A stretch of DNA of 42,003 nt from Candidatus Micrarchaeota archaeon (GCA_964550485.1 CAZJZM010000002.1:1-42003); one strand, 5' to 3'. Positions 5,721-29,032 are shown, numbered from the stretch's first letter. The notes: generated from the sequence alone by a model not told the origin. Program-made: numbers and translations.

Positions 5721-6584
5721 TCAGATTATTACGTAAAGGAGAATGTTGCCGAACAGGAGAGAAACTACCACGGCTATGAAAGCGAAAAAGGCAAGCGGCA
5801 CGCCGCTGGTGTAAAGGGGAATCTTCCTTCTCACGCCCCTTAGGTCCTGAATGAGCTTATTTGTCACCAGTCTTCCGAAATGCTTCGACTTCTTCGAGAA
5901 GAATTCCAAGTCACTCTTGCTCATGGCGTTTGTCGCGATCATGTCCTCATTGGTCAGCCTGCTTGCTGAGACGTAGGAAATCATCTGCCTGCTTATGGCC
6001 TTCTCAAAGATTATCGTGAGCGCGGAGGCAAGCGCGACTATAAGAATGAGAACCACAGCCACCAATCTTATCCCTGCAAAATACGAGATGAAAGCAAGCA
6101 ACAGGAGATAGGCAACAAACATTCCGAATGCCTGGTACAGTTTAGCCCTACTCAGCTCAGAGAGCCTAAGATACCCTCTGCTGTGCGCCCTTAGAAGATA
6201 GTAGACCACCATTCCCACAACGGCTGCATATCCTGTGGCTATGAATACCGAAAAGATAAAGGGGAATCCGAATTGCTGCACGTTGGACAGGATAGGCATC
6301 GGCTGCAGCGGAAGAAGAAGGCTTATGGTGGCAAACTCGAAGAAGTCTCCTGCTCCCACCAGCCCCTTTCTAAAGAGCACGTATCCCAAAGCGCCTATTA
6401 TCAACGCCATCAGAAGACTGACCTCCATCGTTGCGGTATCATAAGTCAAGGTCACAATGACGCCGATTATCAGGCTGGCATAGACGAAGACATCAGGGAC
6501 GTTTCTCTTGTTGAAGATGTCAAACATGGCGTATGCAAACGCTATAACTAGGAGTATTGCCACTCTCAGAAGGAAAGAAATCAT
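5721..6584 (-). CDS. A24-family prepilin/preflagellin peptidase (PibD/FlaK-like)
   Basis: Polytopic membrane protein. Asp in the first TM region (YAMFDIF) plus a GxGD-type motif (LVGAGDFFEF). 287 aa. Confidence 0.6.
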   Translation of the reverse strand: MISFLLRVAILLVIAFAYAMFDIFNKRNVPDVFVYASLIIGVIVTLTYDTATMEVSLLMALIIGALGYVLFRKGLVGAGDFFEFATISLLLPLQPMPILSNVQQFGFPFIFSVFIATGYAAVVGMVVYYLLRAHSRGYLRLSELSRAKLYQAFGMFVAYLLLLAFISYFAGIRLVAVVLILIVALASALTIIFEKAISRQMISYVSASRLTNEDMIATNAMSKSDLEFFSKKSKHFGRLVTNKLIQDLRGVRRKIPLYTSGVPLAFFAFIAVVVSLLFGNILLYVII

Positions 6585-9381: not shown

Positions 9382-12300
9382 GTGTACTTTCTAACAGACA
9401 TTTGTGATGGTGGGGCAACGTCAATATTACACAAACACAAAAGCCTTTTCCGATTTTTACCACTTTTAATACTCTTTATCTCTGCAGGCAGCTCCAGCAC
9501 TGTTTTGGCACAAACAATACCATCTGCAGCGGCATTGTTGCATGTAGGTGTTGCAATAACAGCGCCAACCTCTTACATAGGCGCACTTATGCCACTTCCT
9601 TCGCTAGGCTCTCTTTCCACAACAACGACGAATATCGGCCCACTGCCCAACGCACAGGCAGTCCTGCAAGGAACCACAGACTCAGGAATTTCATTACAGG
9701 TATCATATGCTAACAGCGCTACCCAGGGCCCACAAGTAATATTCGACCTTTTTCCTCAAGGGGCTGGTAACGCGCAGGTCATTCCCAAAAACATATACAT
9801 ATCAGACCCAGGTGTAATGTCTACTTCAGTCGCAATCGGTTCAGGAACATTAACTGGGTTTGCAGTCTGTACGACCTGCGAATCTCCTTTCTTTGCAGGA
9901 GTAACCGTGGTTCCAGTCCCTGGCGGCTTCCAAGTAACCTACAACATCAACGGTGTGGTTACTTCAGAATTTAATTCATGGGGGCAGCCTGGTGTCACCC
10001 CTTCAGTTGGTAGCTTCTTTCAGCCTAGCGGCCAAGCAGTAGGAGGCGACTTTGTAAGTGGTGTAATGGGCGAGATCCAAGTGGCCGGATTCACAGTGGC
10101 TACAATGCCCAGCCCTCCTTCTATCACGTTCATACGCGTATGTACTGACCCATCCTGTAGCACTCCTATTCAAACATCCCAGCCGTATACGGCAGCAGTC
10201 TCCGGCACGTTCAGCGGCGGAACTGAAACCGATGTTGGCCAAGCTTATTACTCCCAAGTAACTATGCCTGGCCCCGGAACCATAACTCTTACTTCCTCCA
10301 CCGGCACAGCCACCATCACCATGGACTCTGACGGAACCATCACCACGGCATGGACTCCGGCCGCCGCTGGAGGAGCGATTGTATCACAACCTCAGGGCTC
10401 CTTTACTCCAGCCGGCAGTTCTGTAGCACAACCCATTCAGATAGGATATGCACCAGGATCGACGGATCTTGGGCCGATACAACCTGTCTACAGCACAGGC
10501 CCCGCACTTCAGGCCCCTTCCTGGGCTCAATCTCCTTGCACCGACGCCGATTGCCTTAATGCCCAGAGCGCGGTAAACAGCTGCTTTTTATATGGCTGCA
10601 GTCAAAATGATTTCCAGCAGGCCGTCAGTGGGTGTATAGATACAAGTGGTTGTAATATCGGAACGTCAGTAGCAGCAGGAACAGTAGGAACAACCCAATC
10701 GTCCGCAATCATCAACTACCTGGGTCCAGAAGAAGGTGAGACATATCCTGTTCCTCAAATGACCGAGGGAGACTACGAACAGCAGCTGGCTTCGCAGAAT
10801 GCAGCGGCATACTTGCAGAAGCAGGATCAGGAGCAAACTGAAGGAGAAATGGGACTTGCCGCATCAGGCTACGGACTGTTACTGAACTGCGCATTCGGAA
10901 AGGCGTCATCCTGCGTGATGGCAATTCCTGGAGCTGCCTTTGCGGCGGCATCTTATTATTATGCATATACCCAAGCATTCGCTCCAGGCGCAAGTCTGTT
11001 CAATGCTGCACTCTCCGCCCTGCAAGTTCCTACGCAGATCATTCAGGCTATAGGCACGGTCTTGGAAGTTCTTCCTTTCGCAACTACCGTAATATCCATA
11101 ATAGAAGGCCCTACAAAGGTTCAGGTTCCATTTCCAACAGTATATTTCAACACCGCATACAACACAATCCCACCAAACATAATCCTGACCAATAGCACAT
11201 TCTACAACTTCTCGCCGGTAGAATCAGTCTACAAGAACAACACCGCAGAGGCACCAAACTACCTAACCTGCCCGATAAACGCTTCGCCGCTGCGCCCCAC
11301 AACCGATCTCTACTTCTACGCGAACAAAAGCACACTGGATGCTGGAGACAAGTGCCTATCCAAGAACACCACCTTCACCTCTGCACTCTACGGCTTTACG
11401 ACCGACATTTCGGTACCTCCCCTTGACGAATTTATTCACATCCTGGTCGAGGCATTTACCGGAGGCTACATCACCGATGTGACCCAACTTCAGATCTCCA
11501 ACCCCGGAGTCCTCACCCTTCAAGACATAGGCTACTTCCCCAGCGTCGACGGACAGCTCTCAAACGGTTGGAACACGAGTTCCTACATCTTCGACCAGGT
11601 GCCATCAACGCCACAACATTCGATCTGGTCGTGGAACCTGGTGCTTGCCAACCTCTCAAACGCCAGTCTTCCAAAGAGTTCTCATCTCTACTTCCAACTA
11701 ATCAAAATCACCGAACCGGGACTCACCTATCCGCCCCCTCCAATCTACGTTGTCCCATGTCTCTACACCGGTCCTTATTTTGAACAGACAACCCTTGACA
11801 GCATCAGCCTCAACTACCTCCCATTCACCGAAACGCTGGAGAATTACTCCCCTATCAACTACAACTCCCAACCAAGGGCAATCTTCGACACAAAGATCTA
11901 CCCCTATCTTCTCTACAATTACCTCCTCTCCGAGAACAACTCCCAGCTGGCAAACCCAAACCTTAGTGGTATGAGTGAAGACGTCTACAGCCCGTGGAAC
12001 TACTACAATCCCGCAAACGCAGAGGACCAGTTCCCTGTCGATCTTCCAAGTGTGCTCTTCGCCAATTCCACCACACATAAAAATGACCTGATAACCCTCC
12101 CGCAAAACGGCATAGGGATTAATGTACAGGCCTTACAGACGCCTGTGCTCATATATGGACAGACCTTCGGGCAGGCCTCATTTACCACATTCATATCCGA
12201 CTCAATCCCCTTCAATCTTTTGATAACAGGCAGCACCTCTACCGGAGTGCCGTATAGCCAAAGCTTCCAGTCATCTACAACAACATTGAATCTAACCAGT

Positions 12301-15300
12301 TATGAACTGCCTCCAGGGAACTACAACTATACCGCCAGCACGACAAACTCAACTGCGATACAGTCCGCGTCTCTGCCTCAAGGCACCACCGTGCTGAAAC
12401 TGCCAACGGCGTCAGTGGCATACAACAGCACCAACCTGATAAACTTCATACAGTACTCCTCATCCTCCACAAACACAGGCGGAACCGGTGGTGAAGGTTC
12501 CCTCCTTCCCGCATCATATACCAACGTAGGTCCATCCGTCTCCTCTCTTTCCACTCAACCAATCACAAACCCAATTGCTATCGCCTCAACCATAAACAAT
12601 TACCTTTACGTGCTTTACTATAACAATAGTCTGGACAGTTATTCCATAGCCGTGATAAGGCTCTATCCCCACGGCACATACAACCCTACTCTGCCGCTTC
12701 CCACTTCCAATGTGACATGCGGCGGACCAGGTTCCTGGTCGATATCCGACTGCGGATCGACATGGAACTCTGAATGGGGGAATTACTGGGACCAGGTCAT
12801 AAACGAAGAGAACAACACCGCCTACGTCCTCAATACAATACCTGTTCCTGACAGTGTATCTAATTCTGGCACATCAGAATCCTTTACTCCATACAGCATC
12901 GCAGCGGACAACGACGGGGACCTCTTCATCTCCGGAGGCACCAATTCCAATACTAGTACAATTCTGCTTAAAATAAATGACGCCGTCGACTCAAACGGAG
13001 ACGTCTGTCTCAATTCTGCATCCTGCGACCAATTTTACTGGGGAAATCTTTCAGGCGTGCCTGGCAGGTTCACGGAGATCGCAGAATCGCCAATCTCCGG
13101 AACCGTGGACCTTGCTGATCCAAGTTCCGGCGCAATTGAGGTATTCGATGGCGAGAACCTGACGTACATTAAGACACTCCCTCTCACCTTCGACAATTAC
13201 ACCGCTGTGAGTGGTATCCCACAACCTTTCTCACAGCAGGCAAACGTCATGGTCCTCTCCGGAGACCTCAACATAACAAAGTGGCTGACCGATGTCGGCC
13301 TATTCGGAATCAAGAACCTTGCTTCCAATCCCAATTCTGATGTCACCGACCAGGAAGGATACCATCACCCACTCGCAATCACCGATGTCAACGGCTATAC
13401 CTACGTCCTTGACGACTGGTCCGGAAATGCGGAAGGAAACAATTTCAACATACTGATGCTGAGGATACTCTCGAACGGTACGAGCATCGACGTTCCTGTA
13501 AATCCATCATTGCTCAATGACGTTTCCATCCTTACTCCACGAGAAAAGGCTATAATCAACTTCGATTCGCAAGGCCTCCAGTTCGATTACCCTCCCTATG
13601 GAATAATACTCTCCGCAAACGTCAGCGGAATTAACTTCTGCTCGTCCACTTCCTGCAAATACAGCCAATCAGACATAAACAGTACCTACTATCCTACCGG
13701 TCCGGAGTTGAATCAGAGTTTCATATACAACCAACATTCCCTCTCCAATTCCCCTGAGATAGGCTTCTCGGTATCGACAGATGGGCAGATGTCAACTTTC
13801 ATTCCTCAAGGAAGCAACAATTTCAAGTACGGAGAATTACTCTTTATGGACCTTAATCCGGTGAACTACACCGGAACGATATCAGGCCTTCCTCCACACG
13901 AATGCTATCTGTCTGTAGACTCGCCAACCTGCGAGGCCTACGACATCGACAGCATAACCCCTCCAATCTATGCAACAGGCGATATATTCAAATATCTGGA
14001 AAACCGCGGTTCGCAGAGTGCGCTGAGTTACACTGTCCAGTACAACAGTCAATTTGCAACATCCAACACCCCTAACTCCGGTCTGAACCAGACCTGCATA
14101 GGTCAACTTTCCAATTTCTCTACGCCAACTTCCTGTTACTCGGCAGGCGCAGAAAACACAATACCATACACATACAACATAACCTCAGCCATTCAGGGAA
14201 ACATCCTTCAAGGAATTGCGTCTCAACAATCCCAGTCAGCAGCCGCCTCCTCAGCCTCCCTCTACTCCATCCTTCAGAGTGTAGTACAGACTCTCGCAGA
14301 GCACATGAACATAATCCATGGACAGCCATTCCTCGGGAACGCTGGAGAATATCTCAACGCTTCCTACCTCTTTCTCAGTACCACATCATCCACTGGCATA
14401 TCGGCCAATACAACCAAATTGTTGGAAAGCCAGATCTCCCTGGTAAACGAACAGGAAAACATCATCATAAACGAGACCAAGATAATGGACCAAGGAGGAA
14501 ATCAGGCAGAGATCAACTCCGAGCTGCAAACCCTTGGTGCCCAGTCAGGTTCATTCGACAGTGCATCTACTGATTCCTCATTGCAAACCCTCGTGGCCCA
14601 AAACGCAACAAACAACACCAAAGCTATGACCGAAACGCTGCAAACCACCGCGGCCCTGGAAACCGCAAACAACACCAAGGCAATCAACTCAACGCTGCAA
14701 ACCCTCGAGGCACTGGCAGCCGCAAACGACACCACAGTGCTGAACGAGACAAAGATATACTTTAACCAGTTGCTGATTTTCGATGTGGAGAAGGACATCG
14801 AACTCCAGGAATTAAGCACTCTAAGTTCTGCTCCGGTAATTACCGGACCCGCAACCGCCAATTCCTCTGAAATAAACCCTCCAATAACAAAGCTTACTTC
14901 GCTCATCTCCGGGCAGGCGATAGTCGCATACGAATATCATTACACCACATTCCAGTGGTGGGGGCCGTTCATCACCATCACTCCGCAATGGAACTGCCCA
15001 TTCTGGGGCTTCCTGCCGTTCGTAGGACCTGTCTACGACCATTACACAACATACGCCTACTCGTTAACGCCCTTCACGATGTCAACCGCACTGCCGACGA
15101 CCATCCAGGGAGGTCCTACCTACCTCCTCCCAGTAAACAGCCAGACCAACTCAAGTTACTACCTTCCAACCCTTGCAGACACGGGTCTTTACCTGAGTCA
15201 GCACATTCTCTTCAACCTTACAAGCGACAGGAGTTTCGGGAGGATCTATGTCGCCAACTCTGGACTACAGAGCAACAACTTTGAGATTCTCAACGCAACG

Positions 15301-16605
15301 CAGCAAAACCGTTACATAATACAGACTGCGCATGTGGGTAACTCCATGTCATACGAGGCAATATCAACAAACGCCATAGGCCCGAACTACGGCAGCCAAT
15401 ACTCAGGCGCGGGAATCCAGGCGACCGACGTACCCTCAAGTTTCCTCTACAATGAGACCCTCCTTACGCCTCCATTTGTAACCAATTACGTGACTCCAAC
15501 GGAATACACAACAGCCCTTTACAGTGACCGGCTCTATCTCTACCTGCCTGAACTCCTAGGCTACCAACGATTGGTCTATGCATTTACGGACGACTTCAAT
15601 AACACAATCTACGCACCTCTGGACGTGGACATAGTCAGGACCACAAGCCTCCTGCTCAACGCGACTCCAGTTGTCAACGTGACCAACACCAACAAGACCA
15701 CCCTGTTCATAACCGGAAGGGCCGGCGAATTGTCATACAACGGCTTCTTCCCCAATCTAAACGGCACAGCAACCTTCATTCCGCTCCCGAACGCCAGTGT
15801 CTACCTCTACTACAACCACAACATAAATTATGTGGGCCTTAACACAGAACAGGATCAGCTCTGCGCCTTCGGAAACCCTTCCTATCCCTACAACACCACT
15901 CCATTCCCGTCCAATTGCACCCTGGCCAATCCAAACTACATCGGAAAGACCCAGGATGCAGGAAACATCAACTACAACCCCCAGTACAATTCCTCAGGCT
16001 TCTGCGCTCCGCCTCCGAACAGTCTGATCAAGAGCACAATAGACTGCAACATCTACGGCGAGGACAATTTCAGCAACCGCATAACCGCATCATGCCCGAC
16101 AGGCGCAAACAACAATCCAAGTTACTGTATCCCCCTATATCTCAACGGAAGTGGTATCTGCACCACCCAACTCGGACTCATAGGCATAGTCAAGACCGAT
16201 TCGGCAGGAGCCTTCAACCTGACTATGAATGCCTGCGGCACCGGCCAGCACAACATCATCGGCCAGTACTACGGCGATTCGATGCAGTTTGCGACTGCCG
16301 ACCAGAACGCGCTCAACCAGAGCGCCGATTCACTTAGCAAAAAACTGGAGGAACTCAATCAAAACGCAGGCGATCCCCAATTCCAAGTTCTGAACTACCA
16401 CTGGTCTCCAAACGTTTCATACTCCCCGTCCTTCCAGTCTGGTTCATTCGCACTCAGCTTCGGAGTCGTCTCCATTTCACTCCTGATCCTGACGATAGTC
16501 ACAATCGCGGCAATACTCCTCATTCACCACCATCGCAACTCCCAAAAATTGAAAAAGAGAAACTCTAGGAAACCCAAAAGAAAGAGAAGGAAACAATCCA
16601 AGTAA
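9382..16605 (+). CDS. giant cell-surface protein (signal peptide, Cys-rich and beta-rich regions, 19-aa repeats, C-terminal TM anchor with Lys/Arg tail)
   Basis: Uninterrupted 2407-codon ORF with a GTG start. N-terminal signal (FRFLPLLILFISAGSSSTVLA-Q). Dozens of N-x-S/T sequons. C-terminal helix VVSISLLILTIVTIAAILLI followed by KKRNSRKPKRKRRKQSK. Confidence 0.8.
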   Translation: MYFLTDICDGGATSILHKHKSLFRFLPLLILFISAGSSSTVLAQTIPSAAALLHVGVAITAPTSYIGALMPLPSLGSLSTTTTNIGPLPNAQAVLQGTTDSGISLQVSYANSATQGPQVIFDLFPQGAGNAQVIPKNIYISDPGVMSTSVAIGSGTLTGFAVCTTCESPFFAGVTVVPVPGGFQVTYNINGVVTSEFNSWGQPGVTPSVGSFFQPSGQAVGGDFVSGVMGEIQVAGFTVATMPSPPSITFIRVCTDPSCSTPIQTSQPYTAAVSGTFSGGTETDVGQAYYSQVTMPGPGTITLTSSTGTATITMDSDGTITTAWTPAAAGGAIVSQPQGSFTPAGSSVAQPIQIGYAPGSTDLGPIQPVYSTGPALQAPSWAQSPCTDADCLNAQSAVNSCFLYGCSQNDFQQAVSGCIDTSGCNIGTSVAAGTVGTTQSSAIINYLGPEEGETYPVPQMTEGDYEQQLASQNAAAYLQKQDQEQTEGEMGLAASGYGLLLNCAFGKASSCVMAIPGAAFAAASYYYAYTQAFAPGASLFNAALSALQVPTQIIQAIGTVLEVLPFATTVISIIEGPTKVQVPFPTVYFNTAYNTIPPNIILTNSTFYNFSPVESVYKNNTAEAPNYLTCPINASPLRPTTDLYFYANKSTLDAGDKCLSKNTTFTSALYGFTTDISVPPLDEFIHILVEAFTGGYITDVTQLQISNPGVLTLQDIGYFPSVDGQLSNGWNTSSYIFDQVPSTPQHSIWSWNLVLANLSNASLPKSSHLYFQLIKITEPGLTYPPPPIYVVPCLYTGPYFEQTTLDSISLNYLPFTETLENYSPINYNSQPRAIFDTKIYPYLLYNYLLSENNSQLANPNLSGMSEDVYSPWNYYNPANAEDQFPVDLPSVLFANSTTHKNDLITLPQNGIGINVQALQTPVLIYGQTFGQASFTTFISDSIPFNLLITGSTSTGVPYSQSFQSSTTTLNLTSYELPPGNYNYTASTTNSTAIQSASLPQGTTVLKLPTASVAYNSTNLINFIQYSSSSTNTGGTGGEGSLLPASYTNVGPSVSSLSTQPITNPIAIASTINNYLYVLYYNNSLDSYSIAVIRLYPHGTYNPTLPLPTSNVTCGGPGSWSISDCGSTWNSEWGNYWDQVINEENNTAYVLNTIPVPDSVSNSGTSESFTPYSIAADNDGDLFISGGTNSNTSTILLKINDAVDSNGDVCLNSASCDQFYWGNLSGVPGRFTEIAESPISGTVDLADPSSGAIEVFDGENLTYIKTLPLTFDNYTAVSGIPQPFSQQANVMVLSGDLNITKWLTDVGLFGIKNLASNPNSDVTDQEGYHHPLAITDVNGYTYVLDDWSGNAEGNNFNILMLRILSNGTSIDVPVNPSLLNDVSILTPREKAIINFDSQGLQFDYPPYGIILSANVSGINFCSSTSCKYSQSDINSTYYPTGPELNQSFIYNQHSLSNSPEIGFSVSTDGQMSTFIPQGSNNFKYGELLFMDLNPVNYTGTISGLPPHECYLSVDSPTCEAYDIDSITPPIYATGDIFKYLENRGSQSALSYTVQYNSQFATSNTPNSGLNQTCIGQLSNFSTPTSCYSAGAENTIPYTYNITSAIQGNILQGIASQQSQSAAASSASLYSILQSVVQTLAEHMNIIHGQPFLGNAGEYLNASYLFLSTTSSTGISANTTKLLESQISLVNEQENIIINETKIMDQGGNQAEINSELQTLGAQSGSFDSASTDSSLQTLVAQNATNNTKAMTETLQTTAALETANNTKAINSTLQTLEALAAANDTTVLNETKIYFNQLLIFDVEKDIELQELSTLSSAPVITGPATANSSEINPPITKLTSLISGQAIVAYEYHYTTFQWWGPFITITPQWNCPFWGFLPFVGPVYDHYTTYAYSLTPFTMSTALPTTIQGGPTYLLPVNSQTNSSYYLPTLADTGLYLSQHILFNLTSDRSFGRIYVANSGLQSNNFEILNATQQNRYIIQTAHVGNSMSYEAISTNAIGPNYGSQYSGAGIQATDVPSSFLYNETLLTPPFVTNYVTPTEYTTALYSDRLYLYLPELLGYQRLVYAFTDDFNNTIYAPLDVDIVRTTSLLLNATPVVNVTNTNKTTLFITGRAGELSYNGFFPNLNGTATFIPLPNASVYLYYNHNINYVGLNTEQDQLCAFGNPSYPYNTTPFPSNCTLANPNYIGKTQDAGNINYNPQYNSSGFCAPPPNSLIKSTIDCNIYGEDNFSNRITASCPTGANNNPSYCIPLYLNGSGICTTQLGLIGIVKTDSAGAFNLTMNACGTGQHNIIGQYYGDSMQFATADQNALNQSADSLSKKLEELNQNAGDPQFQVLNYHWSPNVSYSPSFQSGSFALSFGVVSISLLILTIVTIAAILLIHHHRNSQKLKKRNSRKPKRKRRKQSK
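14521..14750 (+). repeat. four tandem ~57-nt (19-aa) repeats inside the giant gene
   Basis: (c/t)tgcaaacc recurs at 14524, 14582, 14638 and 14695. The peptide units are ELQTLGAQSGSFDSASTDS, SLQTLVAQNATNNTKAMTE, TLQTTAALETANNTKAINS and TLQTLEALAAANDTTVLNE. Confidence 0.8.
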
Positions 16606-20375: not shown

Positions 20376-22520
20376 TTGGAAGATAACAACCCGGCAATAA
20401 CCACAATGCCGGAACAAGCACCTCCTCCTCCGCCTCCGCCTGCTGTTTCTCCACAACCTGGAACTCCGATTCAAGGGAAGCGCTCTCCGACGATTTCTAT
20501 TGCAAGCGTAGTAGTCATAATACTGGTAATAGGAGCGGCCGCATACTACCTGACTTCTGGTCACTCCTCATCCAACAATGATCTTATTTACGCCCAATTT
20601 CTAAAATCCTACGTCTCGAAAAGCCCACTGAATCTGACCGCTTTCCAGCCCATCTCCACTGAAAAGCTCAAGTCCCTCCCGCAGTTCTATCTCAACTACA
20701 GCGGCAAAATCGTAGTCTCGTCAAATTCAACGCTGCTGGGCGGCCTGACATTAAGCATCCCCTTCACCGCTGGCTATGAGAAATACGACAACGACAGCAG
20801 GGCCACACTGAACCTCAAGGATGTTCCTCTTTTTGGCAACCTCAGTATCATAGCAATCAACTCGAGCAGCGGCATTTACAGCTGTACATCCAACGCCACC
20901 TCGCTCCTTGGCCTCTACACAAGGCCGCCTGGCTATACCTGCACAAAGACTAACACCAGCGAGTTCTCATCTCTCATCAACGCAACAACCTCGTTCTCAA
21001 GCAACATCGTCGTGGATTCACTTTCACTCCAGTCATACCAGAAGCAGAGCTGCCTCCTAACCACAATGACAGGCACAGTCTCCCCAGGATCAAAGCAGCA
21101 CCTCAGCAACATCTCAAGCACTCTCGGAAGCCTGGCCGGCTCTGTATCCACCATAGATATGAATTTCACAGGCTGCTATTCCACTGACTACTATGTACCT
21201 TTCAATCTTTCCGGAGTGGCCTCGAGCTCGAACACGAGCATAACCGTCACATTGCACGAGACAGGAATCGGCACGCAGATAAACCAAACCAAGGTAACCA
21301 CACTTCCAGGTCCGATAGTAAACGCTACGGTAATTCCCACATCAAGTTCCGCACCAAGCTCCACATCAAGCTCCACGCCCATATCCCTTAAAGCCAGTCC
21401 AGGGGGCTGCCAGGTCTACAGGCCGAATGGCCCTGGCTCGACCACATACATCAACACTGAAGGAGTTTGCGACAACGGGTCTCCGCAGTACGTTGCACAG
21501 TTCAACAGGCAGAGCAGCTATGTAAGCACAGCACCTGTTCCTTCCGGTCCTCTTCAAACCATAAGCGTCTGGGTTTATCCTAAACAAACAAATCAATCAA
21601 GCTACGGATCCGGGGTCGGAGGCACAATCTTAGAAAGCAACCAAAACGGCAACTTCTCAGGCTATGCCTTGGGAATCCAAAATTCAGGAAAGGTGTGGTG
21701 GTGGCCTCAACCCGGCCAGGACAGATACAGCACAGGCACAGTTCCGTTAAACACTTGGACCAACATAGTACTGGCCTATAACAAAACAAAAGCCAACATC
21801 TATCTTAACGGCGTTCTGGACAGCTCACAGACAGCTTCCCCTCCTAACCCTGCCTCATTCACAAAAATAGGCGCCAAGTCGTGGATTACAGGGAACTTCT
21901 CCGGTCTGATGGCAAATCTACAGATCTACAACACCACCCTAACATCTCCACAGATAGCGGCCCTTTATAGCGGAGGAATAGGCGCCGATCCGGAATTCTT
22001 GAATAATCTGGTCGGCTGGTGGCCGCTCAACGGCAATGCCAATGACTACTCCGGAAACCTCAACAACGGCCTATCCACTGCCTTATCTTATGTATCAAAC
22101 TACAACTACACAGAAGCTTCCTACGGTGGCGGCTCCACAAACACAGCGTCCGGACCCGCACCTCCTTCTACCAATCTTAACACCTGCATAGCGTCCCCCG
22201 GATTCACCTGTCAGATCGTTTCATACGATTCTCTTTCCAACCAACTGGGTGTCACAATTTACCAGAACTCCGGAACCGAATGGGTAAACGCCACTTTTGT
22301 ATATGTAAACGAACCCCAAGAAGCCAGTGTACTATCTTCAGGCCTATCAGAACAGCTACTGGCTTCACAGCCGATATACAACAAGCTCCCTTCCCTAGCC
22401 AGCGGAACCAAACAGCTATTGCTCTTCTCCGCCTCATCCCCAGGCTACATCTGGGTATCCTACTCTACTGCCTCTTCCGGCGGGTCCACCATCCAAGCGC
22501 AGATAGCTTCAGTATCCTGA
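20376..22520 (+). CDS. membrane-anchored LamG (concanavalin-A-like lectin) domain surface protein
   Basis: TTG start 6 nt after GGAGG. Poly-Pro N-terminus and a single TM helix (ISIASVVVIILVIGAAAYYL). Sequon-rich ectodomain. LamG_3-like block around 21500-21990 (ISVWVYP...WTNIVLAYNKTKANIYLNG...GLMANLQIYNTTLTSPQIAALY). Followed by the LVGWWPLNGNANDYSGN motif. Confidence 0.75.
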   Translation: MEDNNPAITTMPEQAPPPPPPPAVSPQPGTPIQGKRSPTISIASVVVIILVIGAAAYYLTSGHSSSNNDLIYAQFLKSYVSKSPLNLTAFQPISTEKLKSLPQFYLNYSGKIVVSSNSTLLGGLTLSIPFTAGYEKYDNDSRATLNLKDVPLFGNLSIIAINSSSGIYSCTSNATSLLGLYTRPPGYTCTKTNTSEFSSLINATTSFSSNIVVDSLSLQSYQKQSCLLTTMTGTVSPGSKQHLSNISSTLGSLAGSVSTIDMNFTGCYSTDYYVPFNLSGVASSSNTSITVTLHETGIGTQINQTKVTTLPGPIVNATVIPTSSSAPSSTSSSTPISLKASPGGCQVYRPNGPGSTTYINTEGVCDNGSPQYVAQFNRQSSYVSTAPVPSGPLQTISVWVYPKQTNQSSYGSGVGGTILESNQNGNFSGYALGIQNSGKVWWWPQPGQDRYSTGTVPLNTWTNIVLAYNKTKANIYLNGVLDSSQTASPPNPASFTKIGAKSWITGNFSGLMANLQIYNTTLTSPQIAALYSGGIGADPEFLNNLVGWWPLNGNANDYSGNLNNGLSTALSYVSNYNYTEASYGGGSTNTASGPAPPSTNLNTCIASPGFTCQIVSYDSLSNQLGVTIYQNSGTEWVNATFVYVNEPQEASVLSSGLSEQLLASQPIYNKLPSLASGTKQLLLFSASSPGYIWVSYSTASSGGSTIQAQIASVS

Positions 22521-22555
22521 AACTGCCAAAGCCAAAATATAGAGATAGTTTCTTC

Positions 22556-22933
22556 TCACAGCTTTACTATCTTAACCTCCCCCTTCACCGCGTCATTTAC
22601 AATCTCGAAATGATTATCGGTTGTTAAAATACATAGCCCTCTTTCTATGGCCTGCGCATAAATCAATATATCCATAATTTTCACTCTCTTGCCTAATTTA
22701 TCTAAAGCCAAACATATGCTAGCAGCGCGTTTTGAATCCCTAAATGTAAACGGAAGCGGCGTTAACTCCACTAAGAATCTTTCAATGTCCTTGTTCTTAG
22801 ACGAGCCAACAAGCGTTTCAAAGGAACACAAAGAGCTGGTGTAAACTCCATCCGCCTCATTTATCGCATCGAGTATTCTTTCATCTCCCTTAGTATAGTC
22901 AATTATCACTGAGGTGTCCAACAGAAGTTTCAT
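22556..22933 (-). CDS. vapC: PIN-domain ribonuclease toxin VapC
   Basis: MKLLLDTSVIIDY N-terminus and C-terminal ILTTDNHF. 125 aa. Its start overlaps the antitoxin stop (ATGA). Confidence 0.8.
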   Translation of the reverse strand: MKLLLDTSVIIDYTKGDERILDAINEADGVYTSSLCSFETLVGSSKNKDIERFLVELTPLPFTFRDSKRAASICLALDKLGKRVKIMDILIYAQAIERGLCILTTDNHFEIVNDAVKGEVKIVKL

Positions 22934-25038: not shown

Positions 25039-25129
25039 GGGGTCGTCTGCTAGTCTGGTTAGGCTCTGTCCTTAGGGAGGACATGACCCGAGTTCAAAAG
25101 GCAAATACCTGAAAATCTCGGCGACCCCG
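25039..25129 (+). tRNA. tRNA-Pro-like (apparent anticodon AGG) with a 17-nt intron in the T-loop
   Basis: Hand fold: acceptor GGGGTCG/CGACCCC, D-loop AGTCTGGTTA with a weak D stem, anticodon arm TGTCC-TTAGGGA-GGACA. T stem CCGAG/CTCGG encloses TTCAAA[17 nt]T. Position matches the conserved rpoN-tRNA(Pro) synteny. Confidence 0.65.
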
Positions 25130-25150: not shown

Positions 25151-25780
25151 ATGACAGCGACTACAACACCGACTGAAATGCTCATCGACCAGTCATTATA
25201 TCTAGAGGTAGGAATACACATAGGCACGAAGGTGAAGACCCCGGGAATGAAGAGGTTCATCTACAAGGTGAGGGAAGACAGTCTTTATCTATTGGACCTT
25301 GCAACAATTGACCAGAGGATAAAGCTCGCGGCGAAGACGCTCGCAAGGTACAATCCAAAGGAGATAGTGGTAACCGCATCGAGAATTTATTCTGTAGCGG
25401 CGGCGGCAAAGTTCGCAGAGATCACCGGAGCACAGATAATGACAGGAAGGGTGATGCCAGGAATATTCACAAATCCCAACAGGAAGGACTTCATGGAGCC
25501 GGAGGTTCTCCTCATAAGCGACAACAGGAACGAGCGACAGGCGGTAAAGGAGGCAAACAAGACAAACATACCGATAATCGCGCTCTGCGACACTGACAAC
25601 TGGATAAAGTTCGTTGATCTAGTAATACCCTGCAACAACAAGGGGAGGAGGTCGCTAGCGCTCATATACTTCCTCCTGGCCAGGGAGTTCATGAAAGAGA
25701 AAGGTTTAATAAAAGATAATGCTGAGTTTCAGTACAAGATCTCCGACTTCGAGGCGAAGGTGGAGATGAAGGCGAGATGA
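25151..25780 (+). CDS. rps2: 30S ribosomal protein S2 (uS2)
   Basis: LEVGIHIGTK...P.M.RFIY..R.D.LYLLDL..T and IPIIALCDTD motifs. 209 aa. Confidence 0.9.
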   Translation: MTATTTPTEMLIDQSLYLEVGIHIGTKVKTPGMKRFIYKVREDSLYLLDLATIDQRIKLAAKTLARYNPKEIVVTASRIYSVAAAAKFAEITGAQIMTGRVMPGIFTNPNRKDFMEPEVLLISDNRNERQAVKEANKTNIPIIALCDTDNWIKFVDLVIPCNNKGRRSLALIYFLLAREFMKEKGLIKDNAEFQYKISDFEAKVEMKAR

Positions 25781-28759
25781 TTGTTTTCAGTTCAGGAAAC
25801 CGCTAAACCGAAAAAACTTCAGGTCGCAATAGATTTTCTCTCTTCCTATGGCATAGCCATACTCATAGTTCTCATAGCCGTGGCGATAGCATACCAGGTC
25901 AGCATAGGCACCACCAACCTCTTCTCGTCGCAATGCACAGCCAATCCCGGATTCTCCTGCGGCTACTACAGCATAAACAACAAAGGCGTACTGACGCTGG
26001 GCCTTGCGCAGGCGACAGGAGCGGCGATAATAGTGAACGGCGTGGCGTGCTCCACCCAGGCAACCAGCAAAGGCCTTCCCGCATACGGCAACCTTTATGT
26101 TACAAGCGCCTTCAATTACTATCCATATCCCTATTCTCCGTATCCTGGGGTGACGGTACCGAGCGGCGGACAGAAAAACTTTGATCTTTACTGCTACGGA
26201 CCGACAGGAATAGAAACGACACCTTCGGCCGGAAGCTCGTTTGTAGGCTACGTCTGGATCAACTACACAATCCAAAATACAAAAATACAGAGCACGCAGC
26301 AGATTGCAGCAGTCAGCCTCGAATCCATCTCCAACGGCATCGTATCAGGAGCAATACCTGTATACTCATTAACGGAGAACACAATACCCCCAGGTGCAGG
26401 AACCGTTTCACCTGGCAGCGGAAACTTCCTCTCTGGGAATATAATATCACTTTCCCAGACTGCAAACTCGGGATATGGATTCGTTTCATGGACCTGCACC
26501 GGCGCAGGTTGCTATTCAGGAACAAACCCGATTCCAAATCTCTTCATCCTCTCCAACACGGTCGAGACCGCCACATTCAATGTAATATACACCTTCACTG
26601 AGAACGCAGTTCCTCCTACATACGGAACTGCTTTGCCTGGCAATGGCAACTATATCTCCGGAAACATGATCTCAATATCTGCAACACCAATCGGCAACAA
26701 TGTCTTTGCAAGCTGGACCTGCACCGGAACCGGCTGCTACAGCGGTCCAAGTTCCTCATACACATTTGCCATAGCAAGCAATACTGTAGAGACAGCAAAC
26801 TTCCAACCACCTCCAACATACACCTTCACTGAGAATGCATTTCCTTCTGGAGGAGGTACCCTCGGCGGCTCTGGCAATGGCAACTACGTTTCCGGAAACT
26901 TGATCTCATTCTCCGAGACTCCAAATTCCGGTTATACCTTCACCAGCTGGACCTGCACCGGAACCGGCTGCTACTCAGGAACAAATACAGTCGCGAACAT
27001 CATAATTGCATCAAACACAGTCGAGACAGCAAACTTCCAATGCGGTGGAAGTTTCATCTTCAACACGGCAGGCAGCAACACCCTTACGGTTCCATCAGGC
27101 TGCAACGGAGCAACCCTCCAGCTCTGGGGCGCCGGCGGGGGCGGCGGCAACGTTTACGCCGGAGCTGGCAGCGGTTACATAACAGGCGCTATGCCTGTAA
27201 TACCAGGGAGCACCCTTTATATTTATGTCGGCGGCGCCGGCACCTACAGTGGAGCTGCAGGCACCAACGGCGGCGGCGCAGGTGAATATAGCGGCGCCAG
27301 CGGCAACGGCGGCGCCGGCGGCTGCTCAGCAGTCAGCACTTCAGGCGGCACATGGAACAGCGTAAGCCTGAATGCCAATATATTCATAGTAGCAGCCGGC
27401 GGTGGACAAGGCGGCGCCAGCGGAGTAGGCGGTGCCGGAGGAGGCACAATCGGCTCCAACGGAGCAGGTTCCTCCTACGGTTCTGGAGGCACCCAGTCCG
27501 CCGGCGGTGCCTCGACCGTAATTTCTGGTTCTGCATTCCAAGGAGGCAACGGTAACAACGACTGGGGCGCCGGCGGCTGCGGCTACTACGGCGGCGGCAG
27601 CGCCAACGGCGGCGGAGGAGGCGGAGGCTCCAGCTGGTACAATACCGGTGCTGTTTCCAGTGTAACCGACACAGGAGGCAGCGGCCAGAATGCGGGCAAT
27701 CCTTCGGGAACCATAGGTAAAGGCGGTGCAGTCTCCGGAAACGGCAACGCAGGAGAAGTCATTGTGACATGGATAGCCGCTCCAGCAAATGCTGCCACAT
27801 ATTCATTCACAGACAACGCAGTGCCTTCTTCGGAAGGAACTGTTTCTTCAAGCAGCGGCAATTATCTCTCTGGAAGTGTTGTTCCATTCTCTGCAACTCC
27901 AAATGCCGGCTACGCTTTCGCCAGTTGGAGCTGCTCTGGAACAGGCTGCTATTCAGGACCCAATGCAGTTGCAAATGTTGTAATAACATCAAACACAGTC
28001 GAGACAGCAAACTTCCAATGCGGTGGAAGTTTCATCTTCAGCACCGCAGGCAGCAACACCTTTACACTTCCAGCAACCTGCGGCCATGCAAACCTCCAAC
28101 TTTGGGGAGCCGGCGGGGGCAGCTATCCTGGGTCCAACGGCGCAGGCGGCGGTTACATAACGGGGAATATAGCAGTAACGCCTGGAAACATTCTTTATAT
28201 TTATGTCGGCGGCGCCGGCGGAGGCTATCTTAGCGGCGGTCCAGGCACCAACGGCGGCGGCGCCGGCGCAGAAGGCGCCGGAGGATGTTCTGCGGTCAGT
28301 ACTTCTAGTGGAACATGGAACTCGGTAGGACTTAATGCAAACATACTAATAGTTGCTGCAGGAGGTGCAGGAGGATCAGGTTACGGCTCTATCAACGGCG
28401 CAGGCGGCGGCACAACCGGCTCAAACGGAGGAACAGGACACGGAGGAACACAGTCTGCTGGAGGCACAGCGGGTTCAGGCGGCGTTGCGGGTTCCGCATG
28501 GCAAGGCGGCAGCAGCAGCATCTACGGCGGCGGCGGCTGCGGCTACTTCGGTGGTGGCTCCGGCAATAACGGCGGCGGCGGCGGAGGAGGCTCCAGCTGG
28601 TACAGCACCAGTATTGTTTCCAGCGTAACTGATCTAGGGGGCAACGGAATAAATCCTGGAGGAAATACTGTAAGTGGATACTCTGCCCCTGTAGGGCAAG
28701 GTGGTGCAGGCACTGGAAACGGCAACTCAGGAGAAGTGATAATCACATCACAAAACTGA
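25781..28759 (+). CDS. type IV pilin-like (class III signal peptide) protein fused to 4 InlB-B-repeat-like modules and 2 glycine-rich (polyglycine) domains
   Basis: TTG start directly after the rps2 stop. N-terminus KPKKLQVAIDFLSSYGIAILIVLIAVAI plus C..NPGFSC. Repeat modules at about 26359-27040 and 27773-28018. Gly-rich domains at 27041-27772 and 28019-28759. Confidence 0.8.
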   Translation: MFSVQETAKPKKLQVAIDFLSSYGIAILIVLIAVAIAYQVSIGTTNLFSSQCTANPGFSCGYYSINNKGVLTLGLAQATGAAIIVNGVACSTQATSKGLPAYGNLYVTSAFNYYPYPYSPYPGVTVPSGGQKNFDLYCYGPTGIETTPSAGSSFVGYVWINYTIQNTKIQSTQQIAAVSLESISNGIVSGAIPVYSLTENTIPPGAGTVSPGSGNFLSGNIISLSQTANSGYGFVSWTCTGAGCYSGTNPIPNLFILSNTVETATFNVIYTFTENAVPPTYGTALPGNGNYISGNMISISATPIGNNVFASWTCTGTGCYSGPSSSYTFAIASNTVETANFQPPPTYTFTENAFPSGGGTLGGSGNGNYVSGNLISFSETPNSGYTFTSWTCTGTGCYSGTNTVANIIIASNTVETANFQCGGSFIFNTAGSNTLTVPSGCNGATLQLWGAGGGGGNVYAGAGSGYITGAMPVIPGSTLYIYVGGAGTYSGAAGTNGGGAGEYSGASGNGGAGGCSAVSTSGGTWNSVSLNANIFIVAAGGGQGGASGVGGAGGGTIGSNGAGSSYGSGGTQSAGGASTVISGSAFQGGNGNNDWGAGGCGYYGGGSANGGGGGGGSSWYNTGAVSSVTDTGGSGQNAGNPSGTIGKGGAVSGNGNAGEVIVTWIAAPANAATYSFTDNAVPSSEGTVSSSSGNYLSGSVVPFSATPNAGYAFASWSCSGTGCYSGPNAVANVVITSNTVETANFQCGGSFIFSTAGSNTFTLPATCGHANLQLWGAGGGSYPGSNGAGGGYITGNIAVTPGNILYIYVGGAGGGYLSGGPGTNGGGAGAEGAGGCSAVSTSSGTWNSVGLNANILIVAAGGAGGSGYGSINGAGGGTTGSNGGTGHGGTQSAGGTAGSGGVAGSAWQGGSSSIYGGGGCGYFGGGSGNNGGGGGGGSSWYSTSIVSSVTDLGGNGINPGGNTVSGYSAPVGQGGAGTGNGNSGEVIITSQN
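27009..28759 (+). repeat. intragenic tandem duplication, period 978 nt (B-repeat end + Gly-rich domain)
   Basis: A 54-nt identical run (catcaaacacagtcgagacagcaaacttccaatgcggtggaagtttcatcttca) occurs at 27009 and 27987. Colinear protein similarity continues through both units. Confidence 0.85.
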
Positions 28760-29032
28760 TCCCTTACTAACTTCCCTTTTCCTTTCGCATTTTTGCCTTC
28801 TATAAATCGAGGCGATATCTTAAATTCATCAAGCGATCCGAAGTTGTTGTTAACGCTCACGAACGTTATGTTTGCAACCAAACTCATTTCGAAGAGCTCT
28901 CCAACTCCAATGTCACCTCCTTTCTACTCGTCATCTCAAAACACCTTCCCGATCTATAGGAGAACCGGCTTATGACTGATTCCTGCTAGGTATATAAAGT
29001 TTCTTCCCGTTAATACTACGTTTGGTGTATTT

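Follow-up and report, generated by a model that had tools for sequence, protein, structure and literature searches.

Directly behind rps2, the gene for ribosomal protein S2, the stretch of Micrarchaeota DNA analyzed here (42,003 nt, the window) carries a long open reading frame that begins like a short type IV pilin-like protein and continues into repeats and glycine-rich domains. The two genes and the sequence elements at their junction are as follows:

25151..25780, plus strand: rps2 (Pfam PF00318, E=6.3e-22; synteny in relatives)
25697..25715, plus strand: BRE/TATA-like box GAGAAAGGTTTAATAAAAG inside rps2 codons -27 to -22, putative promoter of the pilin-like gene
25762..25769, plus strand: Shine-Dalgarno (SD)-like GGAGATGA, 12-19 nt 5' of the TTG start
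25778..25783, plus strand: stop-start junction TGA-TTG, with rps2 and the pilin-like gene in one frame
25781..28759, plus strand: modular pilin-like open reading frame, 992 aa, TTG start

The TTG at 25781 is the codon immediately 3' of the rps2 TGA (25778-25780), as the earlier note on this DNA had stated, and the length of 992 aa was confirmed. It is the sole start that keeps the N-terminal signal, because the next canonical in-frame start, a GTG, falls within the hydrophobic helix. The gene of a 79% identical relative (L001) likewise starts at TGA-TTG, with the leader LFPDQGNPEPKKL followed, behind the predicted cut, by QVAIDFL. Across related loci, the rps2 stop lies no more than 150 nt from the codon of the first predicted mature residue (Q+1) in 52 of 81, with the short gene directly 3' of rps2, and in 30 of these 52 the stop directly abuts the start (TTG in 26, ATG in four), all three stop codons being used. 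Gene order in the relatives is L18e-L13-S9-rpoN-S2-[pilin-like]-LSm; the slot 3' of rps2, described previously as the place where archaea carry rpoK-eno, is normally occupied in Micrarchaeota by the short gene and then LSm.

Promoter-like and putative initiation signals inside rps2

The last ~85 nt of rps2 hold the putative signals of the downstream gene. That there is no room for a promoter is true of the intergenic space but not of the rps2 coding sequence, where the BRE/TATA-like box is conserved; within it, TTAATAAA begins at 25706, 75 nt 5' of the TTG. Synonymous sites in the box, compared over 59 loci, are strongly biased, with Leu encoded by TTA in 82% (7% in the background) and Lys by AAA in 77% (20% in the background). 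The box follows the abutting arrangement of the two genes, occurring in 36 of 43 abutting loci and in 3 of 16 spaced loci (Fisher P=6.7e-6, kinship ignored), and it may be the promoter of the pilin-like gene. Expression had been thought to be tied to rps2; because the promoter-like element embedded in rps2 is conserved, it need not rely on read-through from rps2.

Closer to the junction, rps2 codons -5 to -2 (GAG ATG AAG GCG) are also kept at synonymous sites, GCG being used in 86% against a background of 31%. The SD-like GGAGATGA in this segment probably acts in translation initiation.

An N-terminal carrier module with short stand-alone relatives

Residues 1-185, hereafter the carrier, correspond over their full length to a short protein family of Micrarchaeota (DPANN), with members of 157-210 aa. 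Their alignment with 22 stand-alone proteins (157-193 aa, up to 79% identical) runs from one end to the other, and the carrier is an orthologue of the stand-alone rps2-linked protein. The best 120 members of 157-210 aa in a profile search are each unnamed or labeled "hypothetical protein." The relatives come almost entirely from Micrarchaeota metagenome-assembled genomes (MAGs), which agrees with the small archaeal host proposed earlier, and the description of the present protein as oversized is apt because members of the family normally have fewer than 200 aa. The carrier is divided as follows:

25781..25819, plus strand: leader peptide, aa 1-13 (M/L-FSVQETAKPKKL), carrying a family-wide motif
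25820..25903, plus strand: hydrophobic N-terminal alpha-helix, aa 14-41 (QVAIDFLSSYGIAILIVLIAVAIAYQVS), with Asp at mature position +5 and a motif found in about 80 loci
25904..26335, plus strand: globular beta-sandwich, aa 42-185, defined by end-to-end alignment with stand-alone proteins and by an AlphaFold2 (AF2) model

The leader, MFSVQETAKPKKL, has Lys at -2 and -3 and is predicted to be cut by a prepilin peptidase between L13 and Q14, which makes Q14 the mature +1 and D18 the mature +5 residue. The family motif (arrow, predicted cut), [K/R]-[A/L/G/S]↓Q-x-A-x-D-F-[LM]-x-S-Y-G, is near-invariant in about 80 related loci, and the wider superfamily has the consensus KxQSAMEYLMTYGWAILII, in which Q and E are each at least 90% conserved. 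With all sequence hallmarks present, the family leader reads as a class III (prepilin-type) signal. The AF2 model (pLDDT 69.7) places a helix of ~30 residues at 13-42 and then the beta-sandwich, a lollipop layout. The sandwich contains four invariant cysteines (52, 60, 90, and 138) and the single N-x-S/T sequon of the whole protein, N161 (W-I-N-Y-T). The N-terminal sequence stands as first quoted, apart from a trivial miscount in its cysteine motif, which is C-x4-GFSC (C52-TANP-GFSC60) and not C-x5-GFSC.

Searches with the carrier returned no Pfam, NCBIfam, or PDB-sequence match; neither PF04021, PF07790, nor any NCBIfam pilin or class III model matched at E<=10 (N-terminal 60 or 193 aa, and relatives), and the bacterial N_methyl signature (PF07963/IPR012902) gave no match in the carrier. 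A Foldseek search with the AF2 model returned nothing at E<1e-3. Its best matches are generic beta-sandwiches (the Wzt C-terminal domain, TRAP subunits), and the archaeal type IV pilus (T4P) pilins 8fk7 (E 0.02), 8fj5, and 8q30 are found among the matches at E 0.02-0.08, a suggestive likeness of the modeled fold to archaeal pilins. The earlier assignment of the N-terminus to the class III signal and pilin family thus finds every sequence hallmark but no pilin HMM or PDB sequence match, and membership among the pilins is, by the refuting condition that the earlier note had set, unproven because those matches are absent and the fold search is just suggestive. Two features weigh against a pilin: Leu at -1, though common within this family, is seldom seen at the known prepilin sites of archaea, and the gene is phylum-wide, single-locus, and well conserved, whereas pilins are usually fast-evolving and multi-copy.

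The carrier was compared with Methanococcus maripaludis EpdE, Sulfolobus acidocaldarius Aap and Ups, Haloferax volcanii PilA, the Pyrobaculum calidifontis pilin 8fk7, and the Sulfolobus bindosome sugar-binding proteins. It shares with these class III proteins a short basic leader, a predicted cut before a long hydrophobic helix, and, in the model, a beta-sandwich head; they depend on a dedicated A24 peptidase, for which the window encodes a candidate. The combination of Q+1 with an acidic +5 residue resembles the QxSxE class III motif of Pfam PF04021. It differs from them in the frequent Leu at -1, in having no HMM or significant structural match, in belonging to a protein of 992 aa rather than the typical 130-200 aa or so, and in its link to rps2 rather than to a pilus locus. 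The candidate peptidase had been noticed before:

5721..6584, minus strand: candidate prepilin (A24, PibD/FlaK-like) peptidase, PF01478, with D22 and G77-A-G-D80, polytopic

Its match to PF01478 (E=2.4e-4, 22 bits) lies below the cut-off of 26.5, and a PDB sequence search gave no match; it is a candidate by D22, GAGD80, and this sub-threshold match. Pilus ATPase and platform genes were found neither in the 42-kb window nor beside any family member examined; a T2SSE gene was found in a related MAG (L088). In Micrarchaeota strain Mia14, there are two T4P loci and one FlaK-like peptidase, and LamG proteins are linked to the T4P loci (PMC5498576).

Repeats and glycine-rich domains of the cargo

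The remaining part of the protein (the cargo) comprises about 800 residues, almost uncharged and free of sequons, and is composed of two kinds of domain:

26360..27037, plus strand: three tandem InlB B-repeat (Flg_new_2) modules, aa 194-266, 267-341, and 342-419 (PF18998)
27041..27778, plus strand: glycine-rich domain 1 (GRD1), ALK/LTK-type (TNF-like plus Gly-rich), aa 421-666 (PF12810, AF2, Foldseek)
27794..28015, plus strand: fourth InlB B-repeat, aa 672-745 (PF18998; 67% identical to the third)
28019..28756, plus strand: C-terminal GRD2, aa 747-992, 69% identical to GRD1

The four B-repeats are 53-67% identical pairwise, and the tandem ones each contain a Cys pair in W-[TS]-C-[TS]-G-x-G-C-Y-S-G. 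Their identification as InlB B-repeats, first made in the earlier note, is borne out by PF18998, which matches four stretches (E=1.7e-23, 82.9 bits against a cut-off of 23.6); TIGR02543 reaches 17.8 bits, under its cut-off of 20.95.

Each GRD is 33-34% Gly, and identity between the two is 69% for protein and, across 898 nt, about 70% for DNA. PF12810 matches two stretches (46.6 bits, cut-off 24.5). Structure prediction of a GRD, as had been proposed, gave an ALK/LTK-like fold (pLDDT 82, pTM 0.84) whose top Foldseek match is the LTK TG domain 7nx1 (E=7.6e-8, TM 0.57), and the best 18 PDB matches are all ALK or LTK (E 7.6e-8 to 1.9e-4, TM 0.41-0.57). The suspected kinship with the ALK/LTK ectodomains is therefore upheld by both profile and fold, and the structural match suggests that the GRDs may form a polyglycine-II helix lattice. 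GRD2 ends in GEVIITSQN, which is not hydrophobic, and no C-terminal membrane anchor follows.

In ALK and LTK (PF12810; 7nx1, 7lrz, and 7n00), the TG domain is the ligand-binding unit. The GRDs resemble it in an above-cut-off HMM match and in predicted fold, and differ in being prokaryotic, tandem-duplicated, carried by a pilin-like module, without a kinase, and only 15-18% identical. The GRD fold is also present in phage proteins, with PDB matches to the phage Bxb1 tail tip (9d93_Qb) and the cyanophage Pam3 fiber (7yfw/7ypx), and 185 viral matches (BFVD entries, TM up to 0.80) include virion structural, tail-fiber, and minor tail proteins. As proposed here, the phage domain is placed distally on an elongated host-contact structure, although those proteins are viral and not pilin-anchored.

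Related architectures and the reading of the whole protein

Modular type IV pilins are established in bacteria (Raynaud et al., 2021, PMC8179133), with examples that include Streptococcus sanguinis PilB (vWA) and PilC (lectin), ETEC CofB, and Vibrio cholerae TcpB (PMC8179133). The window protein, a rare fusion of carrier and cargo, can be compared with these, the term fusion being justified because aa 1-185 are a complete protein of the short family. Like them, it joins a small N-terminal module through a short linker to a bulky functional one, is proposed to bind a ligand, most probably at a filament tip, and belongs to a group in which one carrier type bears many cargo architectures. A complete module followed by non-pilus domains (PF18998 four times, PF12810 twice) is the modular-pilin layout if the carrier is a pilin. 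By analogy, the protein would work like a modular pilin, yet it falls outside the bacterial set as defined, since its carrier is archaeal-type, unrelated in sequence, and without IPR012902/N_methyl (PF07963). Its mature N-terminus is Q-x-A-x-D rather than F/M-T-L-x-E, its cargo is four B-repeats and two ALK-type GRDs, its gene is welded to rps2, and its incorporation into filaments is putative.

This design recurs in the wider superfamily, where about 35 of the best 150 representatives exceed 290 aa, always with the match at the N-terminus, and where the cargo of long members consists of DUF2341, LamG, Gly_rich_2, InlB-B, Kelch, propellers, or a beta-helix. The domain combination, for which the earlier note knew of no other case on an archaeal pilin scaffold, is not unique: a class III signal, B-repeats, and a glycine-rich domain also occur together in archaeal P0020 (three B-repeats and a GRD) and P0027/P0037 (Big_1, B-repeats, and Gly_rich_2), which belong with P0106/P0112 (Kelch) and P0008/P0010/P0028 to a set of giant Micrarchaeota class III proteins. 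These share the leader type QSAIEYL...; B-repeats of P0003, P0008, P0010, P0027, and P0028 are 46-59% identical to those described here (best local alignment), the GRD of P0020 is 55% identical to GRD1, and P0003 and P0020 likewise avoid N-glycosylation sequons. Their N-terminal globular modules, in contrast, are of other subfamilies and are encoded elsewhere, at housekeeping loci. Nor is a GRD on a pilin scaffold new: four Bacillota proteins (P0071, P0093, P0119, and P0120) combine a bacterial N_methyl prepilin N-terminus (GFTLIELL) with one or two ALK-type GRDs (PF12810) behind it, with neither InlB B-repeats nor a link to rps2, and they are silent on function because they are uncharacterized. 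On the rps2-linked carrier, B-repeat and GRD cargo was found in the window protein and L001 only; other long members abutting rps2 are L072 (at least 962 aa, DUF2341) and L076 (583 aa). MAG clean719 has separate genes for the carrier (L007, short and rps2-linked) and for a B-repeat and GRD protein (P0020), which fits a fusion through domain shuffling.

The gene probably encodes a modular surface protein of a Micrarchaeota archaeon with a class III, type IV pilin-like signal. The stop of the short gene would have been replaced in this lineage by about 800 residues, arranged as three InlB B-repeats that may serve as a stalk, a GRD, the fourth B-repeat, and the second GRD. An mRNA that begins within rps2, or is supplied by rps2 read-through, would be translated from the TTG, possibly aided by termination-reinitiation, and the A24 candidate would cleave between L13 and Q14. 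The N-terminal helix would then anchor the mature protein in the membrane or in a type IV pilus-like filament, most likely at its tip or as a sparse subunit because the protein is bulky, and the cargo would push both glycine-rich heads outward to a ligand on a host cell or in the matrix. Glycine-rich binding domains and a stalk on a pilin-like carrier make the protein a candidate host-contact factor in tiny symbiotic Micrarchaeota.

A rather doubtful alternative is a plain membrane-anchored surface protein, never polymerized, that displays its cargo from the membrane through the S-layer, with the helix as a mere signal-anchor or as a class III-processed anchor like that of the Sulfolobus bindosome sugar-binding proteins. 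The lack of pilin HMM and significant fold matches, the lack of pilus assembly genes nearby, the location of giant class III relatives among housekeeping genes, and a B-repeat cargo stalk about 800 aa long, suited to cell-surface display, all favor it. A simple anchor would nevertheless need neither the invariant [K/R]-x↓Q-x-A-x-[D/E] nor its acidic +5 residue in the helix; this motif is a hallmark of prepilin-peptidase substrates, and an A24-like peptidase is encoded within the window. As bindosome-type proteins are themselves class III substrates, this alternative departs from the modular pilin-like reading in the assembly step only.

That the protein is instead the major building block of a filament made constitutively by Micrarchaeota, each subunit bearing its 800-aa cargo in a dense, "bottle-brush" glycine-rich coat, is improbable. 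The carrier is orthologous to the one conserved gene linked to rps2, it shares with the short form the promoter and start signals, which suggests equally high expression, a second short carrier copy was not seen in the 42-kb window, and a rough volume estimate is compatible with radial packing. Against this, a position at the tip has been proposed as the most probable one for bulky modular pilins (PMC8179133), the view is limited to 42 kb of the genome and a short paralogue may lie elsewhere, and such subunits crossing an S-layer are hard to picture.

An artifact or recoding (an assembly chimera, a fused pseudogene, or TGA read-through giving an S2-pilin fusion), which the repetitive cargo and the shared frame with one TGA between might suggest, is very improbable: an identical protein (P0001) is recorded in NCBI, ENA, and GEM; L001, an independent long-read contig from another sample, has the same fusion, with the pilin module again running into a B-repeat; synteny is conserved on either side of the cargo, and a chimera is excluded because the cargo precisely fills the interval from the pilin module to the syntenic LSm gene; repeat units only about 70% identical in DNA are too diverged for repeat collapse; the use of all three stop codons, with the start codon next in 30 loci, speaks against specific recoding; and a class III signal preceded by a 209-aa cytoplasmic leader would be implausible.

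Downstream of the gene lies one further element:

28787..28797, plus strand: T5 run GCATTTTTGCC, read from the sequence ~30 nt past the stop of the open reading frame

GCATTTTTGCC resembles an archaeal oligo-T terminator and may end transcription there, and the LSm gene has its own TATATAAAG at 28991.

The rps2-abutting reading frame and its carrier module

The open reading frame claimed by the earlier note at 25781-28759 (+) is real: it encodes 992 aa, and its TTG start is the codon right after the rps2 TGA, in a shared frame, with no other canonical in-frame start codon upstream of the hydrophobic helix. Its product, the window protein, combines a carrier (residues 1-185) with a cargo of InlB B-repeats and ALK/LTK-type glycine-rich domains (GRDs); Gly makes up 22.5% of its residues, Lys occurs only 8 times, and both Arg and a C-terminal anchor are lacking. 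A cysteine motif previously given as C-x5-GFSC reads C-x4-GFSC.

Layout of the window protein (25781-28759, forward strand), from dissection of its sequence
Residues 1-13: leader
Residues 14-41: hydrophobic helix
Residues 42-185: globular domain
Residues 186-193: linker
Residues 194-266: B-repeat 1
Residues 267-341: B-repeat 2
Residues 342-419: B-repeat 3
Residues 421-666: GRD1
Residues 672-745: B-repeat 4
Residues 747-992: GRD2

A search with residues 1-193 retrieved 22 proteins of 157-193 aa, with identities of up to 79% and no Pfam domain in any of them. These short homologues align with the window protein from its leader to their own stop codon, at query residue ~185, with four Cys and the motif W-[LI]-N-Y-[TS] unchanged throughout. 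Because of this end-to-end alignment, residues 1-185 are regarded as reproducing the full length of a protein that normally stands alone, and the rest as an addition. Comparison of a carrier profile with 1.84 billion cluster representatives found 2550 proteins at E<=1e-3. In a separate profile search, the best 120 members listed are 157-210 aa long, are unnamed or called only "hypothetical protein," and derive, where the organism is given, mostly from Micrarchaeota, Micrarchaeia or "Marsarchaeota"; the N-terminal consensus of the wider superfamily is KxQSAMEYLMTYGWAILII. A literature search found no paper describing the carrier family or tying a Micrarchaeota pilin to rps2.

Across ~80 loci the leader follows the motif [K/R]-[A/L/G/S]↓Q-x-A-x-D-F-[L/M]-x-S-Y-G (arrow, predicted cleavage); position -2 is basic, and within a long hydrophobic helix position +1 is Gln and +5 is acidic. 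By sequence, this pattern is characteristic of prepilin-peptidase substrates. In the AF2 model of the carrier (pLDDT 69.7) a 30-residue helix sits on a beta-sandwich, and the fold matches of the model include the archaeal type IV pilus (T4P) pilins 8fk7, 8fj5, and 8q30, none at E<1e-3, the best being generic sandwiches. Eukaryotic TRAP subunits were also among the top matches, and a translocon reading was rejected because the TRAP anchor is C-terminal and the likeness is that of a generic beta-sandwich. Window 5721-6584 encodes a polytopic protein with D22, GAGD80 and a weak Peptidase_A24 match; in Mia14, a strain of Micrarchaeota, a single FlaK-like peptidase accompanies two T4P loci (PMC5498576). 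Pfam/NCBIfam scans of the whole protein, its first 60 aa, its first 193 aa and its relatives returned no pilin or class III family, and nothing significant was found among PDB sequences for the carrier profile or GRD1. The proposed pilin/class III N-terminus thus stands as regards the class III (prepilin-type) signal residues, but not as regards a curated HMM or a significant fold match. Because evidence for and against pilin identity both stand, the carrier is named class-III-signal, type IV pilin-like, and its membership of a pilin family is unproven.

Adhesin-like cargo and its distribution

Both domain assignments made for the cargo from sequence were upheld by Pfam, with four stretches matching PF18998 (Flg_new_2, divergent InlB B-repeat; E=1.7e-23) and two matching PF12810 (ALK/LTK glycine-rich domain; 46.6 bits vs a cut-off of 24.5). 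Pairwise identity among the B-repeats is 53-67%, and GRD1 and GRD2 share 69% identity in protein and ~70% in DNA. Structure prediction of GRD1, built from 20 aligned GRD segments (pLDDT 82, pTM 0.84), agreed with the expected ALK/LTK-type fold: ALK/LTK TG/GRD ectodomains fill the first 18 places among the PDB matches (E 7.6e-8 to 1.9e-4, TM 0.41-0.57), and the tail tip of mycobacteriophage Bxb1 and the fibre of cyanophage Pam3 come next. In a viral structure library, 185 proteins match the model at E<=1e-3 (TM up to 0.80), including virion structural, tail-fibre and minor tail proteins, and the ALK-type glycine-rich heads of the cargo share this fold that phages use on fibres. By analogy, the GRDs may act as ligand- or receptor-binding heads and the B-repeats as a stalk. 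For a prokaryotic, surface-displayed (predicted) ALK/LTK-type domain of this kind, a ligand could be sought on the host.

A foreign origin of the cargo was rejected, as its parts and the flanking genes overlap in GC3 (0.36-0.61 and 0.36-0.74, respectively), and the raised GC of the cargo is due to Gly and Ala codons. N-x-S/T sequons are absent from the 807-aa cargo (window 26336-28756); the whole protein has one, vs 17.5 +/- 3.6 expected, and this is the family-invariant W-I-N-Y-T of the carrier. Sequon avoidance is common to the related proteins P0003 (1 vs 18.5 expected) and P0020 (1 vs 8.6), and sequons are not depleted in the other giant class-III proteins P0008, P0010, P0028, and P0106.

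The window protein is probably a modular class-III-signal surface protein that unites a conserved, rps2-abutting carrier with adhesin-like cargo. Membrane-anchored display without a filament is a possible, though doubtful, alternative: it stands beside a leader of prepilin type on the one hand and, on the other, a genomic setting with no pilus assembly genes adjacent at any locus examined (the window and the family and relative loci). P0020, P0027, P0028, and P0106 lie among housekeeping genes, with one non-adjacent T2SSE gene seen, and among the clustered neighbours of the 22 family loci without rps2 the recurrent ones are an upstream protein of 407 aa (response-regulator-like) and a secreted downstream one of 276 aa, with no ATPase or platform gene. 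A bottle-brush major subunit would be an improbable role for the protein. Long forms are rare in the close family, yet recurrent.

Among these long forms, L001, 79% identical to the window protein and lying on a frameshift-ridden long-read contig, runs on into B-repeats; those of L072 (at least 962 aa, with DUF2341) and L076 (5995-7746, 583 aa) abut rps2, and that of L073 has 610 aa. In L076 the carrier is followed by a long linker of low complexity with (ST)n and (ATNA)n runs, and the C-terminal part has no Pfam match. Some 35 of the best 150 superfamily representatives exceed 290 aa, the match being N-terminal in every case, and their cargo includes DUF2341 (7), LamG (3), Gly_rich_2, InlB-B, Kelch, beta-propellers, and beta-helix. 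The earlier note knew of no archaeal pilin scaffold with this domain combination, but in the Micrarchaeota class-III proteins P0003, P0020, P0027, and P0037 different N-modules carry the same B-repeats and GRDs. In the MAG clean719, a short rps2-linked carrier (L007) and a B-repeat and GRD protein (P0020) are separate genes, which suggests that the window gene arose by grafting such cargo onto the rps2-linked carrier. Bacterial proteins joining prepilin N_methyl to PF12810 (P0071, P0093, P0119, P0120) are the counterpart of pilin plus GRD, and among concepts already described the bacterial "modular pilin" comes nearest; its survey was defined by the bacterial IPR012902 prepilin motif and leaves archaea unmentioned (PMC8179133). 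The locus provides evidence for an archaeal "carrier plus cargo" modular-pilin strategy, known in the literature found from bacteria only.

The address after rps2 and its putative expression signals

In relatives, a short gene lies between rps2 and the LSm gene, in the order rpoD-L18e-L13-S9-rpoN-S2-[gene]-LSm. The earlier note had placed the gene "where archaea carry rpoK-eno"; this was off the mark, because rps2-adjacent loci hold the stand-alone short form, whose normal home is the slot after rps2. A locus scan using one genome per species confirmed 130 loci, of which 80 were kept, nearly all from Micrarchaeota MAGs. The rps2 stop lies <=150 nt from the Q+1 codon (the first residue after the predicted prepilin-peptidase site) in 52 of 81 analysable loci, and in 30 of those 52 it is directly followed by the start codon (TTG 26, ATG 4). 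Since TAA, TAG, and TGA are all in use at the junction and the start codon comes next, stop-codon read-through or recoding was rejected, as was an assembly chimera, given an identical protein in public databases (P0001), the L001 contig, and GRD DNA only ~70% identical; artefact or recoding is thus a highly implausible explanation of the reading frame.

The last 40 codons of rps2 show strong synonymous-site conservation at three places (59 loci).

Conserved elements in rps2 (codons counted from the stop)
Element 1, codons -27 to -23: GAG AAA GGN TTA ATA; Leu is TTA in 82% vs 7% background, Lys is AAA in 77% vs 20%
Element 2, codons -13/-12: GTC TCC; synonymous-site conservation
Element 3, codons -5 to -2: GAG ATG AAG GCG; synonymous-site conservation

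Element 1 reads as a putative archaeal BRE/TATA box, AGAAAGG-TTAATAAA, starting 75 nt before the TTG (window 25706), element 2 lies where transcription start would be expected, and element 3 resembles a Shine-Dalgarno-like sequence, GGAGATGA. Of the 43 rps2-abutting loci, 36 have the TATA-like box, vs 3 of 16 loci with a spacer (Fisher P=6.7e-6, not phylogeny-corrected); in those three the gene starts 1-4 nt past the rps2 stop, and several spaced loci (e.g., L078, L055, L025, L037) have TATA-like strings inside the spacer instead. From this pattern we infer that the pilin-like gene has its own promoter, embedded in rps2 wherever the spacer has been lost; the gene may in addition be co-transcribed with rps2 and translated by termination-reinitiation where the stop meets the TTG. 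The earlier view that there was no room for a promoter is correct for the intergenic space (TGA-TTG), but a conserved TATA-like box lies inside rps2. A T5 run follows the reading frame, and LSm has its own TATA box; sigma-70 promoter scans are inapplicable to archaea. The locus offers a natural example of a promoter-like element at the synonymous sites of a ribosomal-protein gene, only where the spacer is lost.

More tentatively, the short rps2-welded gene could supply the core subunit for a surface filament or contact organelle that is constitutive and specific to the phylum Micrarchaeota. Because the S2 coding sequence would have taken in the promoter and start site of the gene, synthesis of the subunit would be tied to ribosome production, and lineages would graft different cargo onto it to make a host-contact adhesin, here with ALK-type glycine-rich heads. 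How DPANN archaea such as Micrarchaeota attach to hosts and exchange material is the question addressed, and the locus gives concrete, testable candidates for such contact. In culture, Mia14 and Ca. Micrarchaeum harzensis express numerous surface proteins labelled "hypothetical." The fixed address after rps2 makes this phylum-wide, unannotated gene easy to find in MAGs and to track in transcriptome and proteome data. Neither the linkage to rps2 across the phylum, with a promoter-like element inside rps2, nor the carrier-cargo strategy in archaea appears to have been described; the underlying principles are already known and basic concepts are unchanged.

In a second conserved context of ~16 more distant Micrarchaeota loci (L028, L036, L047, L058, L064, L068, L069, L071, L073, L075, L077, L079-L083), the family member lies off rps2, with a ~407-aa response-regulator-like protein (receiver-like segment VLIVEDD…DLMLP) upstream and, in 14 of them, a ~276-aa secreted protein downstream. 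In L054, the ORF that abuts rps2 (stop ~5084, junction TAA-TTG) is another one, which also opens with a class-III-like leader (…RKLQSAM…), and the family member lies ~930 nt beyond it; the rps2-abutting slot can therefore hold another paralogue. L006 (DATJMH010000004.1), labelled "Candidatus Saccharimonadales bacterium," has archaeal rps2, the pilin-like gene (61% identity) and LSm (95%) in Micrarchaeota order and is very probably a mis-binned contig.

Other genes in the window

The rps2 gene of the window may start at a second ATG, 25178 (MLIDQ…); the string ATATAA occurs at ~25137, and the L001 orthologue is called 9 residues shorter (window region 25151-25180). Between rpoN and rps2, a tRNA-like gene at 25039-25129 (+) has a perfect acceptor stem (GGGGTCG...CGACCCC) and is not called by ARAGORN or Rfam as it stands. 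ARAGORN calls tRNA-Pro (anticodon agg) only once 15-19 nt of the T-arm region are removed in silico, so the gene is probably tRNA-Pro-like with a non-canonical intron. The ORF at 9382-16605 (+) encodes 2407 aa without a Pfam match, with a Sec-like signal (…LILFISAGSSSTVLA↓Q), a C-terminal transmembrane segment followed by a very basic tail, and 61 N-x-S/T sequons; the GC skew of its DNA is strongly negative, and its product resembles a very large, glycosylated protein of the surface or S-layer type. At 20376-22933, between tRNA-Leu and L18e, lie a gene for a 714-aa protein (Pro-rich N-terminus, membrane anchor, Laminin_G_3 domain) and, on the opposite strand, a PIN-domain gene, which together are regarded as a lineage-specific insertion into the rpoD-L18e interval because the related loci L002 and L004 have only ~110 nt between tRNA-Leu and L18e.
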